64,000 bases of DNA from Raillietiella orientalis (lineage: Eukaryota). The notes below the pieces were generated by a model that saw only the letters and a list, made by a program, of their open reading frames with translations, was not told the DNA's origin and ran no database searches. The stretch spans positions 372,001-436,000 of the forward strand of contig JAYWIR010000034.1 in NCBI GenBank assembly GCA_036172245.1. The letters run 5' to 3'. Positions 37,401-64,000 of the stretch are shown here, piece by piece (position 1 is the stretch's first letter; each line of letters starts with the position of its first letter). The translations under genes and the position numbers were made by a program.

Positions 37401-40269
37401 GTATTCAGGTTTGTAAGTGAACTTGTTCAGATGTATTATTGATTTTAAACAAATTAAGGAAGCACTATATCATAATGAAATCAAAATTTAACTTTAAGAT
37501 AAGGCAGAAATAATATTTAGTAAACCATTAGATTAAATGCTTAGAAATCATGAGGTAAGGCAATATTCATCAAGATTTCATAGAAATCTGATCTTAGACT
37601 TCGCCTCCGAGCAAAACTGTTGAACCATATTCAAATTATACATTTAACGAGCTGGAGGAATTTTTTATGTACCATGAATCATGCACACAAGTACTGAGAA
37701 AACAAATCGGGCTTGAAAGCATATGATTTAATTCTGTATTGGGTATTAGGCCTTTTCAATTGCTGCCTTGGATGACAATCTGTAAGAATAATGTTGTAGT
37801 GACAATATACCTTCGCAATTATATCTTGCAAACATCTGTCCTCAAAAATTTTTGTGAAGATATCAACTTAAGGTGTTTGAAACCTGTTGGAGGTTTACAA
37901 AATCTGTAAACTGAAAACTGAAACATTGACCTAACAAACACAGAACTCCTTCCTTGAATCATTCAGTCTTTGGAACTCATCTTTACCGAATTTATTAATG
38001 ACATTATTCGATTAAGAAACAAGACTTCATATGATTTACTGAATCTTGGCAACCGAATTTCAAAAATTAATATGCATTCTAATTTAGGTAAAAAAATGAG
38101 CTTTGCATTACATATTATTCCTTGCAACTCTTTCAACACTTAATTTTCCGTAAAGACAATGGGAACTTTTCACTAAAGAATTATAGATCTCACTTAATAC
38201 CCGCATGACTACCACTCACCAAGGGGAATGGATGTCACGGGTGTATCACTATGAAAGAATTTCATTTGTAAGCTCAATTTTTTATTAAAAAAAATGCAGC
38301 TTGCACACAGAACTCTAAATTTGGCTACTTTGGTTCAGATTTCAACAACTGTGAGTTATGCTTTTAAGCCATATCAGTTGATTATTGCTAAGACTAATTG
38401 TACAATTGCTGAAGACAAATGGATTTCATTATTACTAAATGTTCATAAATTTTTCTCGCAAGACATAAAATTACTTTTTTTGTTATGCTATATTAGAACA
38501 TTCACGTGGTATAGCCCCCTTTATGAGTTTCTTATTATGAATAAAATGAAGATCGTAGACATGTACATAAGCTCATGATGTGTTTTTTATTTAATAGATA
38601 ACATAGTGACTGAATTTTGATTTTGTATTATGAATTTTTTATAAATTTGCATGCAGTACACAACTTCTTGTAGCAGTTGCAAAATTTAGTAGCAGTTTTA
38701 GTGGAGCATTCATTTTGACTTCGTTCGAAAGGGCATTTTCAATCATTTGGAAACATGGAAAGCCATCTTAGATAGATGCACTAAGAAGCACTATTACAAA
38801 AATTACTCCAGAAGCAGTGCTTCTGGAGTAATTTTAAAATAAGGGAAACACATCACATAATGATACAATTGAAAATTTGCAAATTGTACAGTTACACCAC
38901 TGTTCCTTGTGACTGAATTCGTGTTTTTCGACTAACCCTTTCAGGTATACAGTTCTTTTACACAAGAAATTAATCTAGAAAATTATTCACAATTGCTATC
39001 ATTTGAATTTCTTCTCCATCTTATCAACTATGCATTATTTTCATCTTTGTGATCTGAACTTTGAACACAGATGCAGAGATTCCGTCATAATGACCTCCGA
39101 AGGGCATACTCTATTCACAAAGAGCTCACTCATATTCATACTTTAAAGCATCCTTTAGAAATCACTACGAAGATTTCAAGAGCATTCAAGAGCCTTCTTT
39201 GTAAATTAACACGAGACATAGAAAAAATTCCTGTTTATTTATAATGCCTGCTTTCTTAAAGAAGAAAACAGTTCCGAGTTTGATTTCTAACGTTAAAAAT
39301 GGAAGTTTCATGTTTGCCTTATTAAAAATATACGAGTGCACACAGATCATGACGGAGATCCAAAAATTTATCAGGTGACTGTCCTGTAGTAAAAACAAAT
39401 TTCATCATCATTCAAATATTCAGTGTTATACAAATATTCAATTCACGTATGCAAACGGGTACAGTGTTCGATCAGAGCTCGGGTCGCAAAAGTCTTCGAC
39501 ATGAGATCATTTTACACTGTAATCATTTAATTTCCAATTCACATATAGAAGACTACGATGAAGAAAGAAAAACATGAAGGGCTCTGGATGTATGATTTTC
39601 ACGATTTTGAACTTCCTTAAGAGTGAATGAACCATGCATTAGCAACCGATTTCAGCCTGTGAATTAACCCACATTTGCCTTCAATCCAAGAGGAACTACT
39701 TTAGATGTCTAAATTCAAGATGAATTCTCATAGATGGTGGAGCGAAGGTATAAAACTGACGTTCAGGAAAATTGCATAAGAAGTGAATAAATTATGTAAA
39801 GTTTGCTCTGCAGACGTTTTCCAACAAGGTCACTACAATTGGGCAGGTGAACTAGGTGACTTGGATGAGGATTCTTTTCAGAATTGCTTTTGAAGGGATA
39901 TCTCTGTCACGAAAGCAGATGATAAAACATGCAGTGGCAATTTTGGGAATCCTAAAGAGAATCAAAGAAACTCTATCATCTCATATTTTCTGATCAACGA
40001 GCAATGCTACTCTCTCTTTCAACTCAAGTTAAAGCATCGTCCTGAATTTCTATTAAATGCCAACCGAAAATTACAGGTATGTTTAGCCAATTTGCTGAAG
40101 TGCAGCCCAAGTTCATTCCGGAATGACTTCGCTGTAGCTGAGTCCATCCGATAAAAAATAATGCAAATACTCTTAACTCGTTGGTTTCCGCACGAATCAT
40201 TTGTGGAGCCTCAAAAGATGATGGAAATCTTTCTGGGTGCTTGAGTTTTCATTGCTTTCCTTGCAGTTT

Positions 40270-40850
40270 TTTCTTTTTGTTTTCCGGTTTTTCCTTGGTT
40301 TGCTAAGTGCCGAAGAAATGCTCGCATCCTTAGGGAGGGTTCACGAAGCTCTTGAACACTGTCCACGCCACCCGGGTGAGTGCAACTCTTCAAGTTAGGG
40401 GGAACCACTATGAATACAGGAAGGTTCTGGAGGGAGGGGCGCGTTCCCTTTAAGCGTGGTAGAAAATCCTCCCTCTGGTTGTCTCCGGGGGGGACTACTC
40501 ATTTCTTCTCTTAAGGGAACCCGTAAAGGATCCGCTGCGGGAATTCTCCGGAGGAACCCGCAAGGGAACTGCTCCTTGTTTCCTCCTTTCAAGAGAACCC
40601 TGAAGGGAGGCTTCCCAACTTCTCTGAAGGGCTCTCTCCAAAGGGTGCAGAGCCTTCTTAACACTCCGGAGAGACGGACTCGCGACTGGGGTATCAACCA
40701 CCTCCATGGTTTAGGCGGTTCCATTTTCACAACGGGAAGGGAACCTCGAAGGGAGCCGGGCTCCTTGATTCTGCTTCCTAGGAAGACCCAGCTTTCAATC
40801 CCGGCCAGTCAACGGGGACATCCGGTTTCCGGCTTCCACCAGTGCCGCCG
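40270..40850 (-). mobile_element. SINE-like element copy 2, body and 3' tail
   Basis: The reverse complement aligns to 6908-7520, e.g. ggtggaagccggaaacc, gcagaatcaaggag, ccccctaacttga, cagtgtt.aagagcttcgt; A-rich tail. Confidence 0.8.
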
Positions 40851-41935
40851 CAGAGTGGGACTCACGTCCTTCCTTGCGCGTCGTCCACGCAGTCTCATCC
40901 ACGGCGGACTGCACCTGCGGCAGGTGGCTGCGCTTGCCACGAAAAACGGGTGGATCTCGCGAAGAATGCATGGGCAAGCAGAACCTTCCTCGCCACTGGG
41001 CTGCCCTCCCTTAGGAGGCACATGGGCAGCAGCCTACGGCTAGATGGAAGGTTACTATGGAAATTTCCGGGAGGAGAAAAGGACTGGGCGAGTGGACGAC
41101 GGGCCAGCTCACTGACGCTGCGACCCCGAGTACTCGACCTCGTGGACTTTTGCGTTGGCGCGTGCTATTGGGTATTCCAGAGGAAAACCTGCAGTGGCCT
41201 CTGGTGCTCATGAACATCCGCGTGGAAAGTGGAAGGAGTCGGCTTTGCTGCTGCTGCATTGGAACCTCCCGTGCAACGTCCGCAGGCATCTGTGGACACA
41301 GGGTGTGTGTGAACCCAAACTGTGCAAGGTGCAGGGAGCGGGAATCCTTCCCGCACCTCCTAGTGGACTATGTTGCCCTCTGATCCCTTTGGGTACACTT
41401 TGCCACGACCCTCGGAACCCTCTGGGAGCAACGCCCGAGACGCTGTAAAGCGCTTCTTCCTGCTCGACGCCCTCACGCCAGCCTCATCCCTAGCAGCACT
41501 TTGCTGTCTACACAGGATCGTGGCTGCATGGAGCAACTCCAGAAGAGATCAGAACCAGAGGGACGCCATATATTTTGCTGTCCTCTTCATGAGCACAGCG
41601 TCAAAATGGCCCCATCTGGGAAGGATAGAAGAGGAATCTGCCGGCATCCTTACAAGGATGCAGGCAAGGACGCCCTTCAACACACAGTGATCCCTTCCCG
41701 CAGCCCTCCCCCCTACACACCATCTTTTTTGACTGCAGTTTTTTGTTTTGTTTTTTTCTTTTTGTTTGTCTTCCCTTCCCTTGTGCTGCCAAGGAGCACC
41801 TCTCTGGCCTGCGTGCCAGATCCCGGCAGGCTCCTTTTCGTATTCATAAGTAACATGGCAGGATCAAACGTCCTGCCACAGACATGTAGGTTTATTTTTA
41901 TAAATAACCGCCTCGGAGTGACCGGGTGTCAACTT
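40851..41935 (+). mobile_element. 5'-truncated Tx1/L1-like LINE 3' end inserted into SINE copy 2
   Basis: With frameshifts reads QWPLVLMNIR-KWKESALLLLHWNLPCNVRRHLW-RVCVNPNCARCRERESFPHLLVDY..LW (zf-RVT). Stop at 41690, T-rich 3' UTR. Flanked by gtgccgccg (40842-40850) / gtgcagccg (41936-41944). Confidence 0.75.
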
Positions 41936-42090
41936 GTGCAGCCGAAACCTATAAGGTCAACCAGTGTCATCCTGGGAGGAGGACTCGAAACCCATGACTC
42001 ACTCATTTCCCAGCGTCCCGTTCTCCACGTGGGGATTCGAACTCGCAACGCTTGGTGTCACGCGCGGAGCATTCCTATTAATCGACATTT
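41936..42090 (-). mobile_element. SINE-like element copy 2, tRNA-related head
   Basis: The reverse complement caccaagcgttgcgagttcgaatcccc...gaaatgagtgagtcatgggtttcgagtcc...caggatgacactggttgacc aligns to 6783-6905. Confidence 0.8.
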
Positions 42091-44693: not shown

Positions 44694-45250
44694 TCACAGT
44701 TCCGCAATCAGATGGTCTTGAGTTTGCTTCGTCAGGTTTTCCAGCCAAGCACCGTGGTTGAATTGCTGGAAGGGTGAGTAATGGGAATTGCAGCTAGCAA
44801 TTTGATCTGGGAACATCGTATTTGGATTAGGGAACAGGGACCATTCATGTTCTGCCGGGATAGTGAGAATCTCAGAGCTGGGGAAGCACTCGTAGACTCC
44901 ATTTAACGAGGGATCGAGTTCGTACTGTATCGAGGGACTCCACCTGGACTGCCATGTTTGATCTTCGCTCCCAGCAGATTGTTCGTAATGCGATTCTTCG
45001 GACGTGCCGTAAACGAGCAATTCGGGATTGCTGGGAATTTCCATGCAGTGGTTTAGTGCTGAGTCCCAGTCGTGTTGAGCGGCAATCGTGTAGTCCCAGT
45101 CGACTCCCTGGATCTCTTCTACATTGGTAGGCAAATTGTAGACATAGTTCTGACTAGAAGTGAAGTCTGGCAAGAGAACTTGTTCGGGACACCAGGAGTT
45201 GTTCTCCGAGTTTGGAACTTCGCACTCAGATGGGCAGGGGTATTCCTGTC
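44694..45250 (-). CDS. gcm: probable gcm terminal coding exon, acidic Pro/Ser/Trp-rich tail (184 aa + stop)
   Basis: 557-nt open frame after the acceptor aattacag|. Strongly non-random composition (29 D/E, 2 K/R, 7 W), as expected for a transactivation/PEST region. Same strand as and downstream of the GCM exons. Confidence 0.8.
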
Positions 45251-48200
45251 CTGTAATTCGACACATTTTTATTACCCATAATCTGGTAGGAGATCACTGA
45301 GCACAGCGACTAAGCTTGATGTATTTAGAGTGGGAGGAAAGTGCTCGAGAACTCTGTGTTTAGGGAGGTGCAGGGAAGCAACTGCACCGATGCAAGTTGT
45401 GGGCAAGTAGGGAGACCCAGAGAATTGCCATCTTCCTCTCTCGAGGAAATTCCCCTTTATTTTTCTCAATTCATTCAGGAACACGGTGAATAGAAAATTC
45501 AGCTATGTCAGCAATAGGCTCATGCTAAAGTCCTCATCACCTAAAGGGGTTTGTTTCATCGAGGTTATCGAGAAATAGCTTTGATATCGAAATGCCTCCT
45601 GCTGTCACTCAATGGCTCTTAGTACTTTTGAAAGAGAAGCAAATTCACCAACCGAAAAGAAAACTCTTGTTTCTATGCCACTGATGCGATGGTTCTTAGC
45701 AGGCGAAGCTCCTGAGGCTGGACTGTTAAAACTACGGAAAACGTTCCCGGAACTTTCTTGACAAATTTCAGAAATAGAGGCGGCGCTTGATAGGAAAAGG
45801 AAAAGAAATGCACTGGATTTACTTCCCACTATTTTCTACCTGCTTATTTCTTCTTTGTTGGTAGTTCAGATGAACTAGTTTAGCTCTTCCTACGAAGGAA
45901 TGCAGGAAAGGCGAACAAAGAATCGATTGCTTCGCCTTCCTGACATGGAAAACACCATTCTCCAGCTAGAGGCAAAATATTCGCAAAGTTCAAGATGATG
46001 AACACAAAGCCCATAAGCAGGTCATTCTTTAAGTGATCCTGGATTTGCCTGGATCGTGACACATTTGTGTGTACAAGGTCTGTTATCTACAATTGGAAGA
46101 GGCGAAAGAGGTTGCCATGGCAACTCACAAGACATCATGCGTGTAAGATTGCGGATCGTCCAACTAAACTTTCGAGAGAAGCCTTCTTCTTGTTCCACTC
46201 ATTCTGTTTTCTCATTCACTTCGAGTCAGTGCTGCAGGGTCGACTCCTCACGCTTTGTGTAGTTAACAGAAAATAGACCTTCCTGTATGGAAGAGATCAA
46301 GCAGGAGTTTTTCCATTGTACCAACTGTATCAGGATAGTGTTTCTGTTACGAGAAAGGAAGTGAATGTGAAATCTGTTCCTTTGTCCGCAACTGATATGA
46401 CATTAACTCGAAGACAGAGGAGTGAGATCTGTACGAAGTGCGTCAGAGAGAGGTAGAGCCGATGAAACTTGCATTTGTGAATCCCCGAATAAGATTTTAC
46501 CTGTTGGAGGTGGACTCTGCTCTAGTCGGAGTGCGGCATTCATCCTGGTGTCCGAGAAATCCAGCATCTGAAATGAGAAGATGACTTGAGTGGAGTCTTG
46601 TATCTCTTGAACACAGCCAACACCTGTGGCATACCATCGTCAGAGATGAAAACGAATTGAATTTTTAAAAAGTACCTTATCAAACCCCCATATTCGAAAG
46701 CCACACAAGCTAGCGTTATCGGATTCCTACTCGCTTATCCTCTCATTTCCCAACTGTCCAGTCGAAAGGCATGCACCCCTCCGATCTAGATTTTTCGGGC
46801 CTTCGAGCGTCTTCGCTTTTTGTAAGAAACATCATAATCTCAGAGGTATAAACGTCTGATGTGCTCTCTGGAGTTCAGCTTTTCACTGGGAGGGTCAACT
46901 ACCATTTCCTCCTCTCTGTATTCAGACTTTGTTATAATGGAGTGATTATAACAAAGTCGCCCGCGCAGATAGCGTGCTGCATCGAATAGTCTTAAGGTTC
47001 TTAAGAATACCCAAGAATACCTTTCGCCTGATCAACATATGATCTGTGAAAAAATCATATTCGAGCTCAAAATACTCAAGTGGTTTCCTCGGGATATTCG
47101 ACAGAAGATGGATGTAGGCTAAAATTTGAGAAAGCTTCTTGAGAAACTGGAAGGCTCTTGAGGAAGCGAGAAGGATGGTAGGACGTGCAGAATGCGAGAA
47201 ATACGAACTCTCCTGAAGTTGAACTGAGGACCGGACCGAGAAAACTCTGGAACATGCCTCGCACCCTTCCCAGCAATATCACTTGCTATTGAAGATATGA
47301 GCTTGGAGTTTCAGGAATGAAAGAGAAAATGATGCGGTGGAGTGAAAGAACTAAGGTTAGGTTGTGAGACTGAGGTAGACTGATCTCACTGGAGACATGC
47401 AATTTTTAGAATTCTGGTCAAAGGTCTTTGAACATAAGATGATAGCGCAACGGGGCAAGAAACGATCAATTTACAAGAAAATTTGATACAGTATTCATGC
47501 TGCTTACCACCTCTTTTGGACGCGAGACTCCTCCAAAACTGCGAGAAACTGTTGAAGGCAATCCTGTTTAAGATTTTAGGATTACTAGAACTAATAGTTA
47601 ACACTTCCATTGTCTTAGAGGAATTCTCTCTTCATTTTCTGTCTCACAAAACATTCATGTATTTATTTATGTCGAACACTTGAGTCAAACTGACTTTATC
47701 TTCTGTCCTCCTCGCCGTTTCCTGTGTTTTGCAAAGATACTCGAAAATAGGCAAGCATACAAAAGGTGTTCATTTTTGTTGCTGAAATTCAGTTTTGGTA
47801 TTCTAATTTTTCTTGAAACATTCTTTGGTAGATGTACCCAAACCCAGTGCTTGTAGAAGCAATAAAACCACACAGAAACTATTTGATGATGCTGCCTTCT
47901 TGTGTCGTTTACACGAGGGTCATTTCAGCTTCCATCGACAGTTCACTTTTCAGGATGTGCAGCTTTGGTCACGTTCGCTCCGAAACAGCCTGTCCAAGAG
48001 ATCTCGCATTTGCAGAGATAGGCTGCTTTTCTACTGAAGTCGCTGAAGAGTTTTGGGTACGAATGAACTGTGAATCTTATGCGACTTCGAGGAATTGCTC
48101 CACACTTGTAGCTGCTTCCATACAAGATTTCCTTAATTGAATTTTTCCGACTGAGATATCTTTATCTGAAGATTACTAAGAGACTATGCGACATAAGTTG

Positions 48201-51200: not shown

Positions 51201-53076
51201 TGCCCCTGTCGGGACTACTTTTCAAGCATTTCCTTGTGCTTGCAGTTGTGGTCTTCCTCGCACGCTGTGTTTCTGAATAACTGGTAGCTTCCATGATGAG
51301 TCAGGGCAAGTATTGAATCTTCACATCGAGATTCGTATGCTCAGCAGGGAACTATCACGGTTCATGTCATTACCTTCCCAGGATAGCTCCACTGGAATTT
51401 TCACAACTTACCCTTAATGGAGCTTCCTGAGTAACCAGTGCGAGTGATTTCGAATTTCATAATCACAACAGGGATAGGACACATTTTGGGAGATAATTAC
51501 TGGACGAATATTTGGATCCAAGGAAAGAACTAACGGGCAGCCATGAAGAAATGTATCAGAAAGTAAAGAAGCGCGTTCTGCTTGTGTGACGTTTGCCTTC
51601 ATGATTATTCTATGGGAAAACCCAAATGCGCAAAAGAGAATAGCAAGACCAAGAAGGAGTTGGGCCCCCCCTTCACCAACCAAGAAAAAAAAAAAAAATT
51701 AACAGAGTGAAATGGACCATTTGTGAAGCTGGCGGATTTTTCAGCTGGAATGGAATGCAGTCATCGAAAAAGTCATACCTTTTCAAATGTTTTCCTGTCC
51801 AGAAAGCTCGAGAGATTGTAACGTAATTTTTTGGATTCATTGTTTATATTTCTTTTTAGTTCTGCAGTGGACTTCGGTTCAGGTCTCGGATGGTCATGTA
51901 CTCCCTTTGCCTGCAATTAGACTCCATTTGATTGGATCTGGCTTTGATTTTCCAACTTGGTCAACTCTGAGAACAAAACACCGTGAACAGCAAGAAGAAC
52001 CCATTTTATCCATGAGCCGAAAAAAGTTGCGCATCCCAACCGTAGGTCCCAATGTGAAATTTTCAAACGATATGTAAGACGGCGTCGAATATCAACTCGC
52101 GTCATAAGAAAGAAAAATTCCATAGTAATAAATGAAATATTTTTTTTGCCTGAAAGAAGATGGCACTGCCAGCATGTCTCCAGAAATGAGTCACTGGATA
52201 TCCGCCGTGTCCACGACATTGCCTGATTTCGAGATGACCGCTACAACTGTTATTTGGACAAGATTTCCCTAGAAAAGTTGCAAAGAAAATAATAAATGAG
52301 TTATTTGATTTCATAACAACTTCAATGATACCACCTTGAGATCAGCTGATCATCTTGAATAGAGCTGTTTTAATTAATGTGTAATTTTATAGTAACTACC
52401 TGATGAAACTACTGTAAAAAAGGAGTCATTAAATAAAGACTTAATGAGAAACGAGGACAATCAAATCGAGATTTGAGGAGCAAACAAGTAAGATGTAGGA
52501 GATCGAGAATGGAATTTTACAGTGATTTCATGGATTCCTAAGCATTCGGAATTCTTTATACAACATGAATGGACGTAATTTTAGGAATTCCTCCAATGTT
52601 GACTGAACTTTAATCGCATGATATACATAATCAAAAATCGTTGATGACGAGTTCATTTACCTTGTTGTTTTTTACGTGCTTTGTCGCAAATAGCTGGCCT
52701 CAAGTGCACTTTATCTCCATCCGGCAAGGTACACCTCATGGAACAAACCAGTACTCCCAAACAGCTTTTCTTTAAAATGTTCACCTGGAGCATTGAGGTA
52801 TGCGAAAAAATTCACTGCTTGCATCTCTACTTACGTTGTGGTTGTTTGTGTTTCTCATTGCCCAACCAGAGGAATGTTTTCTCGCTTCTTCACATTCTGA
52901 AGAATAAACGAATCGGCAATGCCCATCAGCCCATTCCTGATACTCATCGTAGTGGTTGACCTGCAAAAGTTTTGAAATTTCGCCGATCTCCATTTACGGG
53001 AGTGCTTCTTCACCTGAGGGATGGCGCTATCATTGATATCCCAGTCGTGGTAGGGAGAGGATTTTATGTATGACAT
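44694..53076 (-). CDS. gcm: Glial cells missing (GCM-domain) transcription factor, spliced CDS join(53076-53014,52960-52835,52784-52661,52268-52150,51910-51779,46567-46501,45250-44694), ~395 aa
   Basis: The spliced translation contains the complete GCM domain: [147 protein letters not shown]. All exon phases are compatible. The start Met and the last two exons are inferred from splice signals and phase, not from homology. Confidence 0.95.
46111..46124. promoter_or_regulatory. perfect palindromic RFX X-box GTTGCCATGGCAAC in the last gcm intron
   Basis: Exact match to the optimal 14-bp RFX-binding palindrome; function not demonstrated. Confidence 0.5.
46501..46567 (-). CDS. gcm: probable gcm exon ([23 protein letters not shown]), 67 nt
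   Basis: Acceptor tcttctcatttcag|, donor CAG|gtaaaa. Phase 0 in and phase 1 out bridges the flanking exons exactly. No homology support. Confidence 0.7.
47880..48930 (+). mobile_element. degenerate LINE ORF2 3' remnant inside the long gcm intron
   Basis: FKVPWKRTF...[15 protein letters not shown]...[17 protein letters not shown] follows the W..(K)..W..H..LP..CxxC..E..H layout, decayed. Confidence 0.35.
50700..51560 (-). mobile_element. degenerate L1-like RT/thumb remnant inside the long gcm intron
   Basis: [19 protein letters not shown] (RPISL..DYKI) and [17 protein letters not shown]...VWTARNH...IKLKVW (LP..KYLG...N....I..W). Confidence 0.4.
51779..51910 (-). CDS. gcm: gcm exon ([13 protein letters not shown]...TFEK), 132 nt
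   Basis: Acceptor ctaattgcag|, donor AAG|gtatga; AKGxHDHPRPE completes the GCM domain. Confidence 0.96.
52150..52268 (-). CDS. gcm: gcm exon (KSCPN...[15 protein letters not shown]...IFFQ), 119 nt, ending at a GC donor
   Basis: Acceptor acttttctag|; [14 protein letters not shown] motif; donor is CAG|gcaaaa. Confidence 0.96.
52661..52784 (-). CDS. gcm: gcm exon ([11 protein letters not shown]...[13 protein letters not shown]), 124 nt
   Basis: Acceptor gctccag|, donor AAG|gtaaat; ILKKSCLGV and [10 protein letters not shown] motifs; preceded by a 50-nt intron. Confidence 0.97.
52835..52960 (-). CDS. gcm: gcm exon ([10 protein letters not shown]...[10 protein letters not shown]), 126 nt
   Basis: Acceptor ttttgcag|, donor AAC|gtaagt; carries the invariant [11 protein letters not shown] motif; preceded by a 53-nt intron. 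Confidence 0.97.
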
Positions 53077-58599: not shown

Positions 58600-59100
58600 A
58601 ATGTTTTTGAAAATGCTCGCTCTCACAAGCCCTCAAGAGGTCTGGCCGCATCGTGTGAGAAGTGATGAAGTTTTGCCCTCAGTTGCAAGAACGTTCCCAC
58701 CTTAAGGCAGACGGTGCTCTCCCAAAAAGCAGCAGCAGCTTGGAGATGGAACATCCTCTTAAGAACGCAAGGATGAACTCGAGAGACGACGTAGAGATCG
58801 AGAAATTCGCGTGCGCAGCGGCTCCTAGCGAAAGGTTCACTTCCTGCTCTCCGGGTCCCTTCCGGGAGTCTTTTCGATGGAAGAGGGAAAAGCATCGACT
58901 TACTCGTTTCATCTTGCAGGACTCAACGCTACACCGAGGATCCGGAAGAAACGTGGTGAGCGTGCACGGACCACTGATCCGAGAAGACAAAGATGACTCG
59001 ACAGTACCGCGGAAGTGTTGGAATCCTGAAGAACGCACGCAAACATCCCGATGCGTCTTCTCAAAGGAACGATTCACTTATCCTAGGAAAACAACAGACT
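58600..59100 (+). mobile_element. degenerate L1/Tx1-like post-RT remnant
   Basis: FRESFRWKREKHRLTRFILQDSTLHRGSG matches FxFxW......R..L..P...GGxG. Confidence 0.45.
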
Positions 59101-60589
59101 CTTCTGCGGCCGGTTGAGATATGCGAGGGAGAGGGAGGAGGGATAAATCAATCCGTGTTCATCTCTCAACATGCATGAGATGCAAGCTCACTTCATCAGC
59201 GCGAGCGTGACAGAAGACTTCCTCTCGGTGTACACTGTCACATAAATCATTTCCTTGTCCAGCAGCAACACCCTGGTCTGTTTGCTACTCAGACTCGGAA
59301 GATTGAGTTGTCTGATAAAATGTTATCTGTGCCTTCGCATGACGGAGCGGCTGCAAAAATACATGCGGTGTTCACGTGCGATGCGGACTGCCTTAAGGAG
59401 AGGATACGTCTGCAGCACCCACCCCCGTTGGTGCACGCGTGCAGTGACACGGAGGATCAAAGGGTATCCAGCGAGCAGCCGCACCGCGGCTGCATGCAAA
59501 CGAGCAACGCGGAAGCAAGACTAATTGCGCAGGCGGATCGGTTCTACGGAAGAGCAAAAAAGGAAAAACTCGTCAGGCGCGCTGGGAGAGATTTCGAGGA
59601 ACCTCCCGCGTGACATTTGCTTGCGGCGGGTTGCTTGGTGGCGAGCGGCGCCTCACGCCGGTTTCAAGGGAAAGAGTGATCCGGAGAACCGAACAGCCAT
59701 TGAAGATTCGGGTGCTCGTTCCATCTTTTGGTTTGTGCGGATCATCCCAAATGGTCACTCAAGAGTTCGTGTTCAAGCCGCGCAGGCGCCCGCGTCCCTC
59801 GCGCAGCCGCAGATCAACCAGTCGTGCACCCTTGAACTCGTCAGATATTCCCCACCACAGGGGGACACCTCCGGCTGTCGGAGTCACCTGCGTCCTCTGA
59901 TCCTCCAACCGAACGCGACTATTCCGTGGTCCGAAACCCTGCAGCATCACCACAGAGCGCTGTCGGCAGACGCCGTGAAAGCCCGTCCAAGATGCCTCCA
60001 TAGGTACGAGGGACTCGGGACTTTGGGGGAAGTGATTAGAGGGAGGTGTCCGTTGCCGCTGTTCAGGCCAACGGCGGACCGAAACTGCGGAGTGCGGAGA
60101 GGGCAAGCTGATCTGGAAGTCGCTCTTCGTAGGCATGCCAGGGCCTATAGAACGCTTTCTTTCAGTTTGGAGATCTGTGAAAATTTCCCTGTGAAGAAGA
60201 AGCGAGGTTCCACGATGCAACTTGTAAGTTAAGCTCAAGATAATGCATTGCCATAGGATCCACTGCTCCAAGCGATAACGACGGGACCAACAGAGGAAGA
60301 TGAATGTGTAGGAGGTAAAGGATATTTGCCCAGTGACTGCAGAGAGAGAAGGAAATGAATACGAGGGTGATGTTACTGCGTTTCAAATAAGATGCAAAGG
60401 AAACTGATAACCTGGTCAGCATATAAAAACGCTGCATCCCGAATTCCGGAAGAGGAAACGAAGCTTCGGTAGCACCGTGCTCTCGAAACGCGGACATGCA
60501 AAGAGAAAGAGTAGAAGATTCATTACTCTGCCGCGAGTGTTTGTTTTTGCGCAGCGTGCCCGGTCGGCATGGATTTGTGCAGGCAGAGA

Positions 60590-61700
60590 GAGAGAAGCGC
60601 TGCCCACGAGCCCCGCGGTTTCCCCTTCCCCAACTCTTCCACCTCGATCCTCTAGGGAAGGATGCTGACACCAGGAAGTTCTTGATGGACTCCCTTGTCC
60701 GGAAAAGAGAGGTGCTTTATTGAGCACGGGTACAGGCAGGGGAAAGCAGCATCGGGAAAGACAGATCTCAGGAGCGAAAGAGGTAGAGGTGCTCAATTGC
60801 CTCTTCTTCCACAGCTGAGGCGGCCTTTGCTAAGAAACGTGACATCAGTAGATCTTCCAGGTGCGACCCCGAGGGTCGATCCTGAAATCCAGTCCGATTT
60901 CATAGTCGGAAGGGTTTGCTGTAGTGGGAGAGACCTAGAGCACCTCCCCACATCCATCCCGATAGATGACCCGGAAGTGACCTCAGCTTGGGGACTCCGG
61001 TTATCAGCGGCCCGGAACGTTCCTCTGGGAGGCTCATCCTCCTTATCCAAGGGATGCGGGAAATCAGGTTCTCTCCTTCCCTTCATCACTGCTCGCCGAG
61101 TGTGGTGCAGGAACGCACATTTAGGGGAATGTGAGCTTCTCGCCTTCGGTGCGTTTCGTTGATCCCGTCCCTCGACCGCTTCCTCCACCTGTACGTCATC
61201 CGCCTCCTTCTCTTTCTTTTCACCGCATCCCATTTCCTATGGATCGAGAGCGGTCCACCGGCCTCTGGGGACTCGGAACGCTCGGGACAGCTGGTAGCGG
61301 TCCCTCTCTCCCCCTTTCGGTCCTCTTTCAAAGGGCTCCGATGCTGAACTTCCTGCGTGGTTCCCTGTAGTTCTCACCCTCACGTCCTGAATCCTCTCGC
61401 TCGGGGATGGCGGGTGCCCTCGAGCCCTACAACCCTGGGGCACGGAGCTCGGAAGGTAAATTTTACTCCCTCCTCGCTTCTTAAGAAGGAATGGTCCTTC
61501 TTAAGAAGCCCGAGCATCGGCATAGGGACGACACGCTTGTAAGAGGAGCAGTACCCAACCGTTCTTCCTACGGGATCCTTTGCCCTACAGCATATCCTTG
61601 GTTTATGCGCTGTCGTGCAGTGCTCTCTTAGTGGCCAAGCAACGGCAGCTCAATAACTCCGTGGGGTTTCCAGACGCCTGCTAGGAGTCCCTATCAGCCG
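60590..61700 (+). mobile_element. degenerate GC-rich L1/Tx1-like RT remnant
   Basis: Colinear: LPQLFHLD, RKFLMDSLVRKREVL, KTDL, FIVGRVCCSGRDLEHLPTSIPIDDP (FxVxRGVRQGDPLS..IxIEP), SSFKG, SLLKKEW. Confidence 0.6.
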
Positions 61701-61749
61701 GCTGGTCCCACTCCTTGCCTCTGCCCTTCCTTCGCCCTGGTTCAGGAAA

Positions 61750-64000
61750 GTGAGCTGAAGAGGAGCTCCCCTGCCCAGTAAAGATCACGTGTTGCAGGGG
61801 CTTGCGGAGGTTGTCAGGAGCTGCCCGCTTCTCCTGTGCTCACCTGCCGTGACCGGAGGCCTCAGCAGCAGAGAATCCGAGATGCGTGTCGGGATGAACG
61901 GTACCCCGGAAACCGGGCAGACAACGCTATCCTCCAATCTCCCTCCCCGCCCTCTGCGGTCCTCGAGAGCAACTTGAGAATGAGGGCGTCCCTACTCCCA
62001 CTTGGTATCAGGGAGCTGGCAGACGCTTCCAGCCTGGACACTCCGGGGAGACTGCCGCCCGGTCCTCGAGAAGCCTTCGCTCTCACTCGGCAGGGCGTCC
62101 CGGATGCTGCGTATCCGGAGCCTTAGGATTGTGCCTTCCTTCCTCCCCCTCCCTCCCAGCTACCCGCTCTCCGGACGCGATGGACTCCACTTCCTCCTCC
62201 CTTCCGCGGTGCCCTGGGACCCGTGAGAGAAGAAGAGGGCTCAAGCTCCCTCTCTCCCTGCTACCCCGGAAGGACGACCTCTCGGAACGCCAACGAATTC
62301 GGAAACGCCGCTCCCTGTTCCTCTCTTAGCGAGGCGCGGTTAGCGTAGGGGCTCCTACCCGTCCTGGATTGTGGTGGCTCCGCAGTAACCAGAGCAGTAA
62401 CCGCTGAATTGGCCACGGATCCATGGCAACGAGACGTGGAGTGCGTTCGTTCCTTCATCTTGGACGAAGGGGATACCGGGAGAGTGAGCAGCTCAAGCCC
62501 CAAGACCCTCCCGCCGTTCCACCGTCCCTCCTCCTTATTTTCCCCGGTATCGGTGTTGCGCGCTCCCGGAGGGCCAGTACAAAGTGGGGAGCTCCAGGTT
62601 GGCGACCGCCTCCCAGCTCTGCACCAAAGAATGCATCCCAAAATCTTCTGAACGGACCTGTGGGCATCCGTGGGCAACAAGGAGAGGGAAGGAAGGAGGG
62701 GAGAGGGAAGACGTGCCTGGAGTCCTCCTTCCCACTGATCTTGCGGGAAGACGTGCGGGCGGTGGATAGAACGCGTGCCCTGCCGCAGCGCTCGAGGCTC
62801 ATGCCTTCCCTCCCCTCCTGGGATGTTCGGTACCCCCAATCTGGACGCTCCAGGAGAGCACGTCCTTGCCGATGGGGTGCGGCTCCAAGTAGTGGAAGGG
62901 GCACTCCAAAGGGGGGGAGCGAACGTCCCGGGTTCGCAGGAAAGGGGAGGAAACGCCAGGAGGGGAAGAAGCTGGGAAGCGGAAAGCGGCGCTTCCGGGA
63001 GGGGACGGGGAACCTGCCCCGTGGGCGCCCTTCAGGTGCACCCCCTCGAGTGGCTGAGGGGAGAAGCGGATATCCGTCCCGGACCCCTGCATGTGCATCC
63101 CGGACTGAGTCACCTGCAGGGGAGGTGCGCCCGGGAGATCCTCTTCCTTGGCAGCAGCGATTCCCTCGAAAGGAGTCAACCCCTTCCTTGGAGGATCGGA
63201 GTGGAAGAGTGAGGGAAGGGGCACCCGCGGGGCTCGTGGGCAGCGCTTCAGATTGGACAGACGAGACGGTGCGGCAGAGGACGCTCTAGGAGGCCGAGAA
63301 ATGGGCTGTTCTCCCGGAGGGCTCGTTCCCGGTGAAAAAAAGGGGAAGGAAGGAAGCGCTCGTGTCCGCGCCCCTCCCTACGGCGAAGGTCTCGTGCCCT
63401 CCCTGGGTAGAAGGCGGAGGGGGTGAACGGAGTCCCCTCAAGCGGAGGAGGAGCGCCCTCTCCCTCCTTTTCCCCGAGAGACACCCCCCGGGGGGAAGGT
63501 CATGCGTACTCACGGGGCAACCATGTCCGGTCCATCGGAGCCGCCGCTCGCCTCCGCTCCTCGCCCCGGTAACCGCCAGCTCGGGGATGGCACTGGCGCA
63601 CGTGCGCAGCGTCCTCCCGCATTTTGGAGCTCCTCGGCGGAAGAGCCGCGCGCCCTCTCGCGGCTTCCGGATTGGCGGCCCGGCCAGGAGAGAGGCGGGA
63701 TCGGCTGCCGTCTCCCCGCCCTTCCCGCGCAGTGGCAAGCGGTCCCCCTTTCTGGTTCGCTCCAGCTCCGCGCTTCCGGCCTCGAGTTCGGGGCCGAGGC
63801 CTGGCCGTCGCGTTCGCAACGGGAAGGGGAAGGCCCGCTTCGGCTCCTCCCCCCCTTCCCCTCGCATCCCCGGATGCCCTCCCTCCGCCCGCGCGCGCGG
63901 CTCCCAAAGGTCGCGTTCCCATGAGTTGGGTATCCGCGGATCCGTCGTTTCCTCCCTACTTTCCACCCCCACCCACCCCCGTCCTCTTCCCTTCCCTTCC
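61750..64000 (-). mobile_element. degenerate GC-rich L1/Tx1-like ORF2 remnant (linker, RT, thumb, zinc knuckle); runs off the window end
   Basis: Colinear: RARAE..GEEPKRAFPFPLRTRR, QPIS, LPSLFHSD, SSPFLRTRDVRSPPLECPFHYLEP, KILGCIL, W....YRGK, SLREEQG..FPN, LQHVIF. Confidence 0.65.

Follow-up and report, generated by a model that had tools for sequence, protein, structure and literature searches.

The single gcm gene of Raillietiella orientalis, a cell-fate gene, is interrupted within its DNA-binding GCM domain by an intron that begins with GC and ends with AG, and this intron is probably an ordinary, somewhat inefficient U2-type GC-AG intron that arose by a GT-to-GC change at its donor. The gene lies on the minus strand of the window, the whole 64,000-nucleotide stretch of contig JAYWIR010000034.1 (assembly GCA_036172245.1, positions 372,001 to 436,000) that was analysed. 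No other conserved genes were found among 137 selected frames of the window.

The gcm gene and its fourth intron

The features of the gene are as follows.

53014..53076, minus strand: first placed coding exon (MSYIK...)
52961-53013, minus strand: intron 1, GT-AG, 53 nt
52835..52960, minus strand: exon 2, GCM domain (Pfam PF03615 positions 1-40)
52785-52834, minus strand: intron 2, GT-AG, 50 nt
52661..52784, minus strand: exon 3, GCM domain (PF03615 positions 41-80)
52269-52660, minus strand: intron 3, GT-AG, phase 1, at a position found in other animals too
52150..52268, minus strand: exon 4, GCM domain (PF03615 positions 81 to about 120)
52144..52152, minus strand: GC donor CAG|GCAAAA, without +5G and +6T
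51911..52149, minus strand: intron 4, GC...AG, 239 nt, phase 0
52102..52104, minus strand: in-frame TGA met when intron 4 is retained
51967..51991, minus strand: candidate acceptor, stronger-looking (61st percentile), out of frame, 56 nt 5' of the acceptor fixed by homology
51916..51920, minus strand: CTAAT, possible branch point, 10 nt from the intron end
51906..51913, minus strand: acceptor and start of exon 5, second copy of an 8-nt repeat (first copy 52145-52152)
51779..51910, minus strand: exon 5, which completes the GCM domain and includes HDH (51890-51898), its 3' end placed at a presumed GT donor
44697..45293, minus strand: 199-codon open frame, putative last gcm exon

An acceptor before 53098 makes a further upstream exon possible, and the frame at 44697..45293 matches neither a Pfam family nor the GCM homologues. 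The PF03615 profile recognizes three of the exon frames at 61-70 bits (cut-off 25), while exon 5 (profile positions 121-140) scores 18.9 bits. In the alignment to mouse GCM1 (PDB 1ODH) the zinc-binding Cys/His set is intact, including both histidines of HDH, which we take to be zinc ligands in the GCM fold. Compared with 19 homologues, each longer than 200 residues, the protein has 73-79% identity and preserves 94 of the 98 near-invariant GCM columns, and one of the four changed columns (C to G in RGHGG) agrees with mouse GCM1. The gene is the single match in the 210-Mb genome, where the search recovered neither a paralogue nor a retrocopy. Its likeness to the GCM family (PF03615; mouse GCM1, 1ODH) takes in the full domain, the Cys/His residues and the motif FFQ-[AS]KG-x-HDH, whereas other GCM loci carry GT or no intron at the site at which the R. 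orientalis gene carries GC. With this degree of conservation gcm appears to be a working gene; the GC site must then be usable, unless the assembled base or allele is unrepresentative.

Intron 4 starts with GCAAAAAAAAT and ends with TTGCAG; exon 4 ends at 52150 (...FFQ), exon 5 starts at 51910, and the minus-strand base at 52148 is C in the assembly. The junction FFQ|AKG is fixed because exons 4 and 5 align to mouse GCM1 without a gap, exon 4 ending at Q147 and exon 5 resuming at S148. FFQAKG is uninterrupted in 21 of 22 homologous proteins, the remaining one showing FFQ followed by GT. The sequence CAGGCAAA starts at both 52152 and 51913 on the minus strand, and none of the nine equivalent positions reached by sliding the junction (-3 to +5) gives a GT donor. 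The first GT inside the intron, at 52096, lies downstream of the in-frame stop at 52104-52102, which leaves no alternative GT donor ahead of that stop. A micro-exon or other acceptors within the intron were likewise rejected, since they meet stops or fall out of frame. The central claims of the preliminary description hold up on this evidence: homology to mouse GCM1 does force a GC-AG intron that splits the GCM domain, the same sequence does stand at both intron ends with no slide yielding GT, and retention does remove HDH, with translation stopping ahead of the motif.

The reading frame sets both the GC at +1/+2 and the terminal AG, as expected of a U2-type GC-AG intron. Against the consensus AG|GCAAGT, positions -3 to -1 and +3/+4 of the donor agree and +5/+6 differ. 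The branch site of U12-type introns resembles TCCTTAAC, and a U12-type intron was rejected, as nothing like that motif occurs near the intron end and the donor GCAAAA fits neither [GA]TATCCT nor GCATCC, the latter given as a U12-type donor motif in PMC1557818. The acceptor scores at the 32nd percentile of this genome's survey, and its pyrimidine count at the 8th; the candidate acceptor at 51967..51991 has the better pyrimidine tract.

Donor strength in this genome and elsewhere

Donors were surveyed in 12 dynein heavy-chain and 11 myosin gene regions, with junctions resolved against 40 dynein and 14 myosin IX homologous proteins in a manner that did not favour GT. The 665 junction groups (659 distinct after merging) divide into 276 with GT, three with GC, 15 unresolved and 365 below the score filter. 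At 3 of 279 strictly resolved junctions (about 1%), the GC rate is close to the usual one, reported as 0.37-0.87% for five model species (PMC1557818, Sheth et al. 2006). The three strict cases are AAG|GCAGGT (less certain, with a GT 4 nt on), CAG|GCACGT and CAG|GCGAGT. Below the filter (n=365), 213 groups favoured GT and nine favoured GC, three of these nine being judged credible (AAG|GCAAGG, AAG|GCAAGC and AAC|GCAAGT). All six credible survey GC donors have +5G, as does GAG|GCCAGT in a citrate synthase gene. A further GC candidate lacking +5G, in a myosin, gave way to a GT located 18 nt further downstream. With +1/+2 ignored, the gcm donor stands at the 73rd percentile of the 276 GT donors and five of the six survey GC donors stand at the 89th-99th. 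The gcm donor is weak for the GC class, and gcm is an exception to the usual +5G compensation in the small GC sample of the survey.

The same survey bears on two broader claims made for the species, namely that four of five GT donors of the gcm gene lack the AGT tail or +5G and that the species may rely on the exonic AG. Four GT donors could be placed, and three of them deviate (GTGAAG, GTAAAT, GTATGA). All four are normal for this genome, falling between the 53rd and 83rd percentiles of the 276 GT donors, among which +5G occurs in 66% and both +5G and +6T are absent from 72. The trend behind the second claim is real, with +5G in 83 of 147 AG|GT donors versus 53 of 65 donors without -1G, and only its species-specific part falls away. 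Less frequent +5G after an exonic AG is a general compensation in U2 introns.

Several incidental features of the surveyed introns may be recorded here. The AAC|GCAAGT donor, which has no -1G, belongs to a 50-nt dynein intron (L189, G000:C13 about 2240746, plus strand) with one supporting homologue. The citrate synthase intron (L228, G000:C1 about 122256-122296, plus strand) is a 41-nt GC-AG intron in which a GT 4 nt beyond the donor would shift the frame. Surveyed introns span GC contents of 0.29 to 0.65 (10th-90th percentile), and in the window GC content is 0.51-0.66 at 59000-64000 and 40001-42000 versus about 0.42 around gcm; the genome is compositionally patchy.

Weak GC donors have precedents in other species. 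As described in PMC1557818, U2-type GC-AG introns share with gcm intron 4 the GC...AG ends, AG at -2/-1 and AA at +3/+4, but most GC donors compensate through +5G and +6T, which the gcm donor lacks. GCAAAA itself is absent from the 500 natural human GC donors of PMC3167603, whose whole supplement was searched. By a count by eye over about 284 rows of that table, about 12 human GC donors lack +5G and about eight (some 3%) lack both +5G and +6T (e.g., DAZL AAG|GCAAAC, ACADVL CAG|GCAACC, AARS AAG|GCAACC and FUBP1 AAG|GCAATG). These four share the AG|GCAA core and the missing +5G/+6T with gcm; the human donors are transcript-annotated, whereas the gcm donor is predicted from genomic sequence. Combining about 1% with 3%, and assuming on the order of 100,000 introns, tens of such donors are expected per genome, so that meeting one in a scan is expected.

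Origin of the GC donor

A scan of metagenome contigs yielded 66 other GCM-like loci. GT follows directly after FFQ in 23 of them (the next exon was found within the locus in 18), no intron occupies the site in 42 (41 scored plus L074, re-assigned), and one is a doubtful match. GT is present in every one of the 23 intron-bearing loci, which collapse to 14 distinct sequences at a 90% identity cut, so the GC is not conserved; these loci come from distant animals (51-78% identity over the exon), with no close relative in the set. The position of intron 4 is ancient.

These observations fit a course of events in which an ancestral exon-dependent GT donor, CAG|GTAAAA, would have changed to GC in this lineage, the GC site still being spliced sufficiently to keep gcm working. 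U1 would pair in the standard way with CAG|G and with AA at +3/+4, leaving a mismatch at +2, and the exonic AG would compensate for the absent +5G. Splicing would be slower than at a GT site, and retained transcripts, carrying a premature stop, would probably be degraded. Points that count against a GT-to-GC change are the +5G of every credible survey GC donor, the pyrimidine-poor acceptor, the missing human counterpart of GCAAAA (PMC3167603) and the few GT>GC changes that are tolerated: according to PMC8375439, in which minigene results for GT>GC sites were at odds with those of full-length assays, only about 15-18% leave any normal transcript, and those sites that still give transcript tend toward better nearby pairing (PMC13129441). 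A GT-to-GC change also leaves the exact 8-nt repeat at the intron ends to chance, with an estimate of roughly 1%.

The C at 52148 could instead be a consensus error beside a run of eight A residues (A8), or a rare damaged allele in a species whose donor is GT. The uniform GT of the 23 other loci accords with this, as does the use of CAG|GTAAA as a donor in this genome (7 of 69 CAG|GT donors in the survey), and the base adjoins the homopolymer. The assembly looks accurate, however. Across 31,921 codons of aligned dynein sequence there was no clear frameshift of 1-2 nt, detectable where 10-residue blocks flank it on both sides. A comparison of two dynein copies gives four mismatches and one gap in 11,220 nt, although shared polishing could hide errors in it. 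From these figures, a weak GT donor turned to GC by a T>C error is roughly expected in at most about 2 in 100,000 introns, whereas a real weak GC donor is expected in about 3 in 10,000 (1.1% x about 3%), some 20 times the error figure. Moreover, the other non-GT donors that were checked carry +5G as compensation, a pattern not expected of random errors. An error or damaged allele is therefore unlikely, and its probability is kept from falling lower because the A8 run adjoins the base and a damaged allele is possible. Systematic polishing from spliced reads was also considered and is unlikely, as intron 3 still has GT despite a near-repeat and a GA donor in a NUBP2-like gene has no copy of its next exon. 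The two dynein copies, 11.2 kb long and inverted relative to one another, represent one part of a dynein gene (G000:C13 about 2227001-2238219, with the inverted copy in L218-L219; 99.96% identical) and are either a recent duplication or an assembly artefact.

A different origin would make the donor a copy of the first bases of exon 5, produced either by a short conversion with spliced mRNA as template or by loss of the intron followed by re-insertion; in the latter form the old intron would have been lost and a new insertion of 231 nt would have duplicated 8 nt of target at the original CAG|G site. Such a templated origin covers the GC, the absent +5G and the repeat at once. The intron ends are identical at 8 of 8 positions, whereas no GT intron of the 276 in the survey matches its downstream exon start at all seven positions compared (nine match at six), and one of the three strict GC introns, in a myosin, has a 7-nt end repeat. 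The poor pyrimidine tract of intron 4 is also in keeping with this origin, and the 42 of 66 loci that are intronless at the site indicate that intron loss is common. While the 8-nt repeat resembles a target-site duplication, it is largely expected: the splice consensus, together with the codons for Gln, Ala and Lys, accounts for most of it. Against re-insertion, intron 4 occupies an ancestral site, with intron 3 retained as well; a genome search, which skips very common words, returned for intron 4 only itself, and no terminal inverted repeat is evident by eye. Intron 3 has a similar near-repeat and yet keeps GT, and the NUBP2-like GA donor shows no copying from its next exon. A donor templated by exon 5 is accordingly improbable. 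The lack of further copies in that genome search and a position common to 23 loci count against an introner-like, transposon-derived intron.

Possible splicing tolerance, possible regulation and the meaning for gcm

The gcm donor could also be one product of mildly relaxed +2 recognition across the species, a faint form of the situation in Eurytemora affinis (Robertson 2017, PMC5714493), whose GA/GG donors likewise depart from GT and combine an exonic AG and +3A with a canonical U1. Consistent with such relaxation, a NUBP2-like gene (L234, G000:C52 about 299072-299215, plus strand) contains a 144-nt GA-AG intron, AGG|GAAAGT, that is needed for agreement with the length of its paralogue, and the AAC|GCAAGT donor occurs in a dynein. 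The GA donor fits a tolerated site better than a random error, because it has a full AAGT tail and no copy of the next exon. On the other side, the 294 filter-passing junctions (15 of them unresolved) include no clear GA/GG donor, the GC rate is normal, and AAC|GCAAGT is found in the human table as well, in GNB2L1 (PMC3167603). In Eurytemora, GA/GG donors reach 12% and the affected introns amount to 10-12% at new positions, whereas in R. orientalis such donors are rare and the gcm site is ancestral (PMC5714493). No GA intron was found in the one stretch of citrate synthase tested. The 5' end of U1 and the ACAGAGA box of U6 are canonical in the best copies. A species-wide relaxation is thus extremely unlikely to account for the gcm donor.

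The genome holds 42 U1 (RF00003) and 48 U6 (RF00026) matches, many of them truncated or decayed, which suggests active retroposition of snRNAs. Nine of the 30 U1 matches fetched, out of the 42 found, have a different 5' end; these nine were rejected as U1 genes compensating for GC, being U1 3' parts behind LINE copies and not suppressor U1s. Tandem LINE copies stand behind a complete U1 gene at several loci (L099 at G000:C51:1014000-1022386, L100, L012-L016, L019 and L022-L024), and each is followed by a U1 lacking about its first 22 nt. Endonuclease and reverse transcriptase are recognized in these copies by Pfam, and a 1177-codon ORF2 is open in L099. The element looks like a Tx1-like LINE aimed at U1; Keno, for U2, and U1-headed elements are named in PMC4494074.

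The preliminary description proposed that the weak donor could act as an on/off or dosage switch. In that case selection would have kept it so that a retention product without the HDH zinc ligands sets the gcm dose by tissue or stage. Retention does delete HDH and brings in a premature stop, as a retention/NMD switch requires, an out-of-frame competing acceptor is present, and GC donors are reported to be enriched in alternatively spliced genes (PMC2490688). However, loss of a downstream domain is expected from retention of nearly any internal intron, GC occurs in none of the 14 distinct other sequences (23 loci, distant animals), intron 4 has no stable fold (z +1.66), and neither AATAAA nor ATTAAA occurs within it. 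A literature search outside most subscription journals, covering titles and the starts of abstracts for retention, found nothing relevant joining gcm with GC-AG introns or intron retention. The proposed switch is not supported by these comparisons and is very unlikely. It is highly unlikely that a donor templated by exon 5, species tolerance at +2 after an exonic AG, and dose-setting regulated retention and decay hold jointly. Under the preferred GT-to-GC change, any lost output would be constitutive leakage rather than regulation.

For genome annotation, the consequence is that a GT-only gene finder would truncate the only gcm gene ahead of HDH, giving it the appearance of a dead gene. The donor would be of wider interest only if regulated retention or species-wide tolerance at +2 proved true. 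If it is real and spliced, gcm intron 4 adds a further case at the weakest end of the GC donor range, within a gene that purifying selection maintains.
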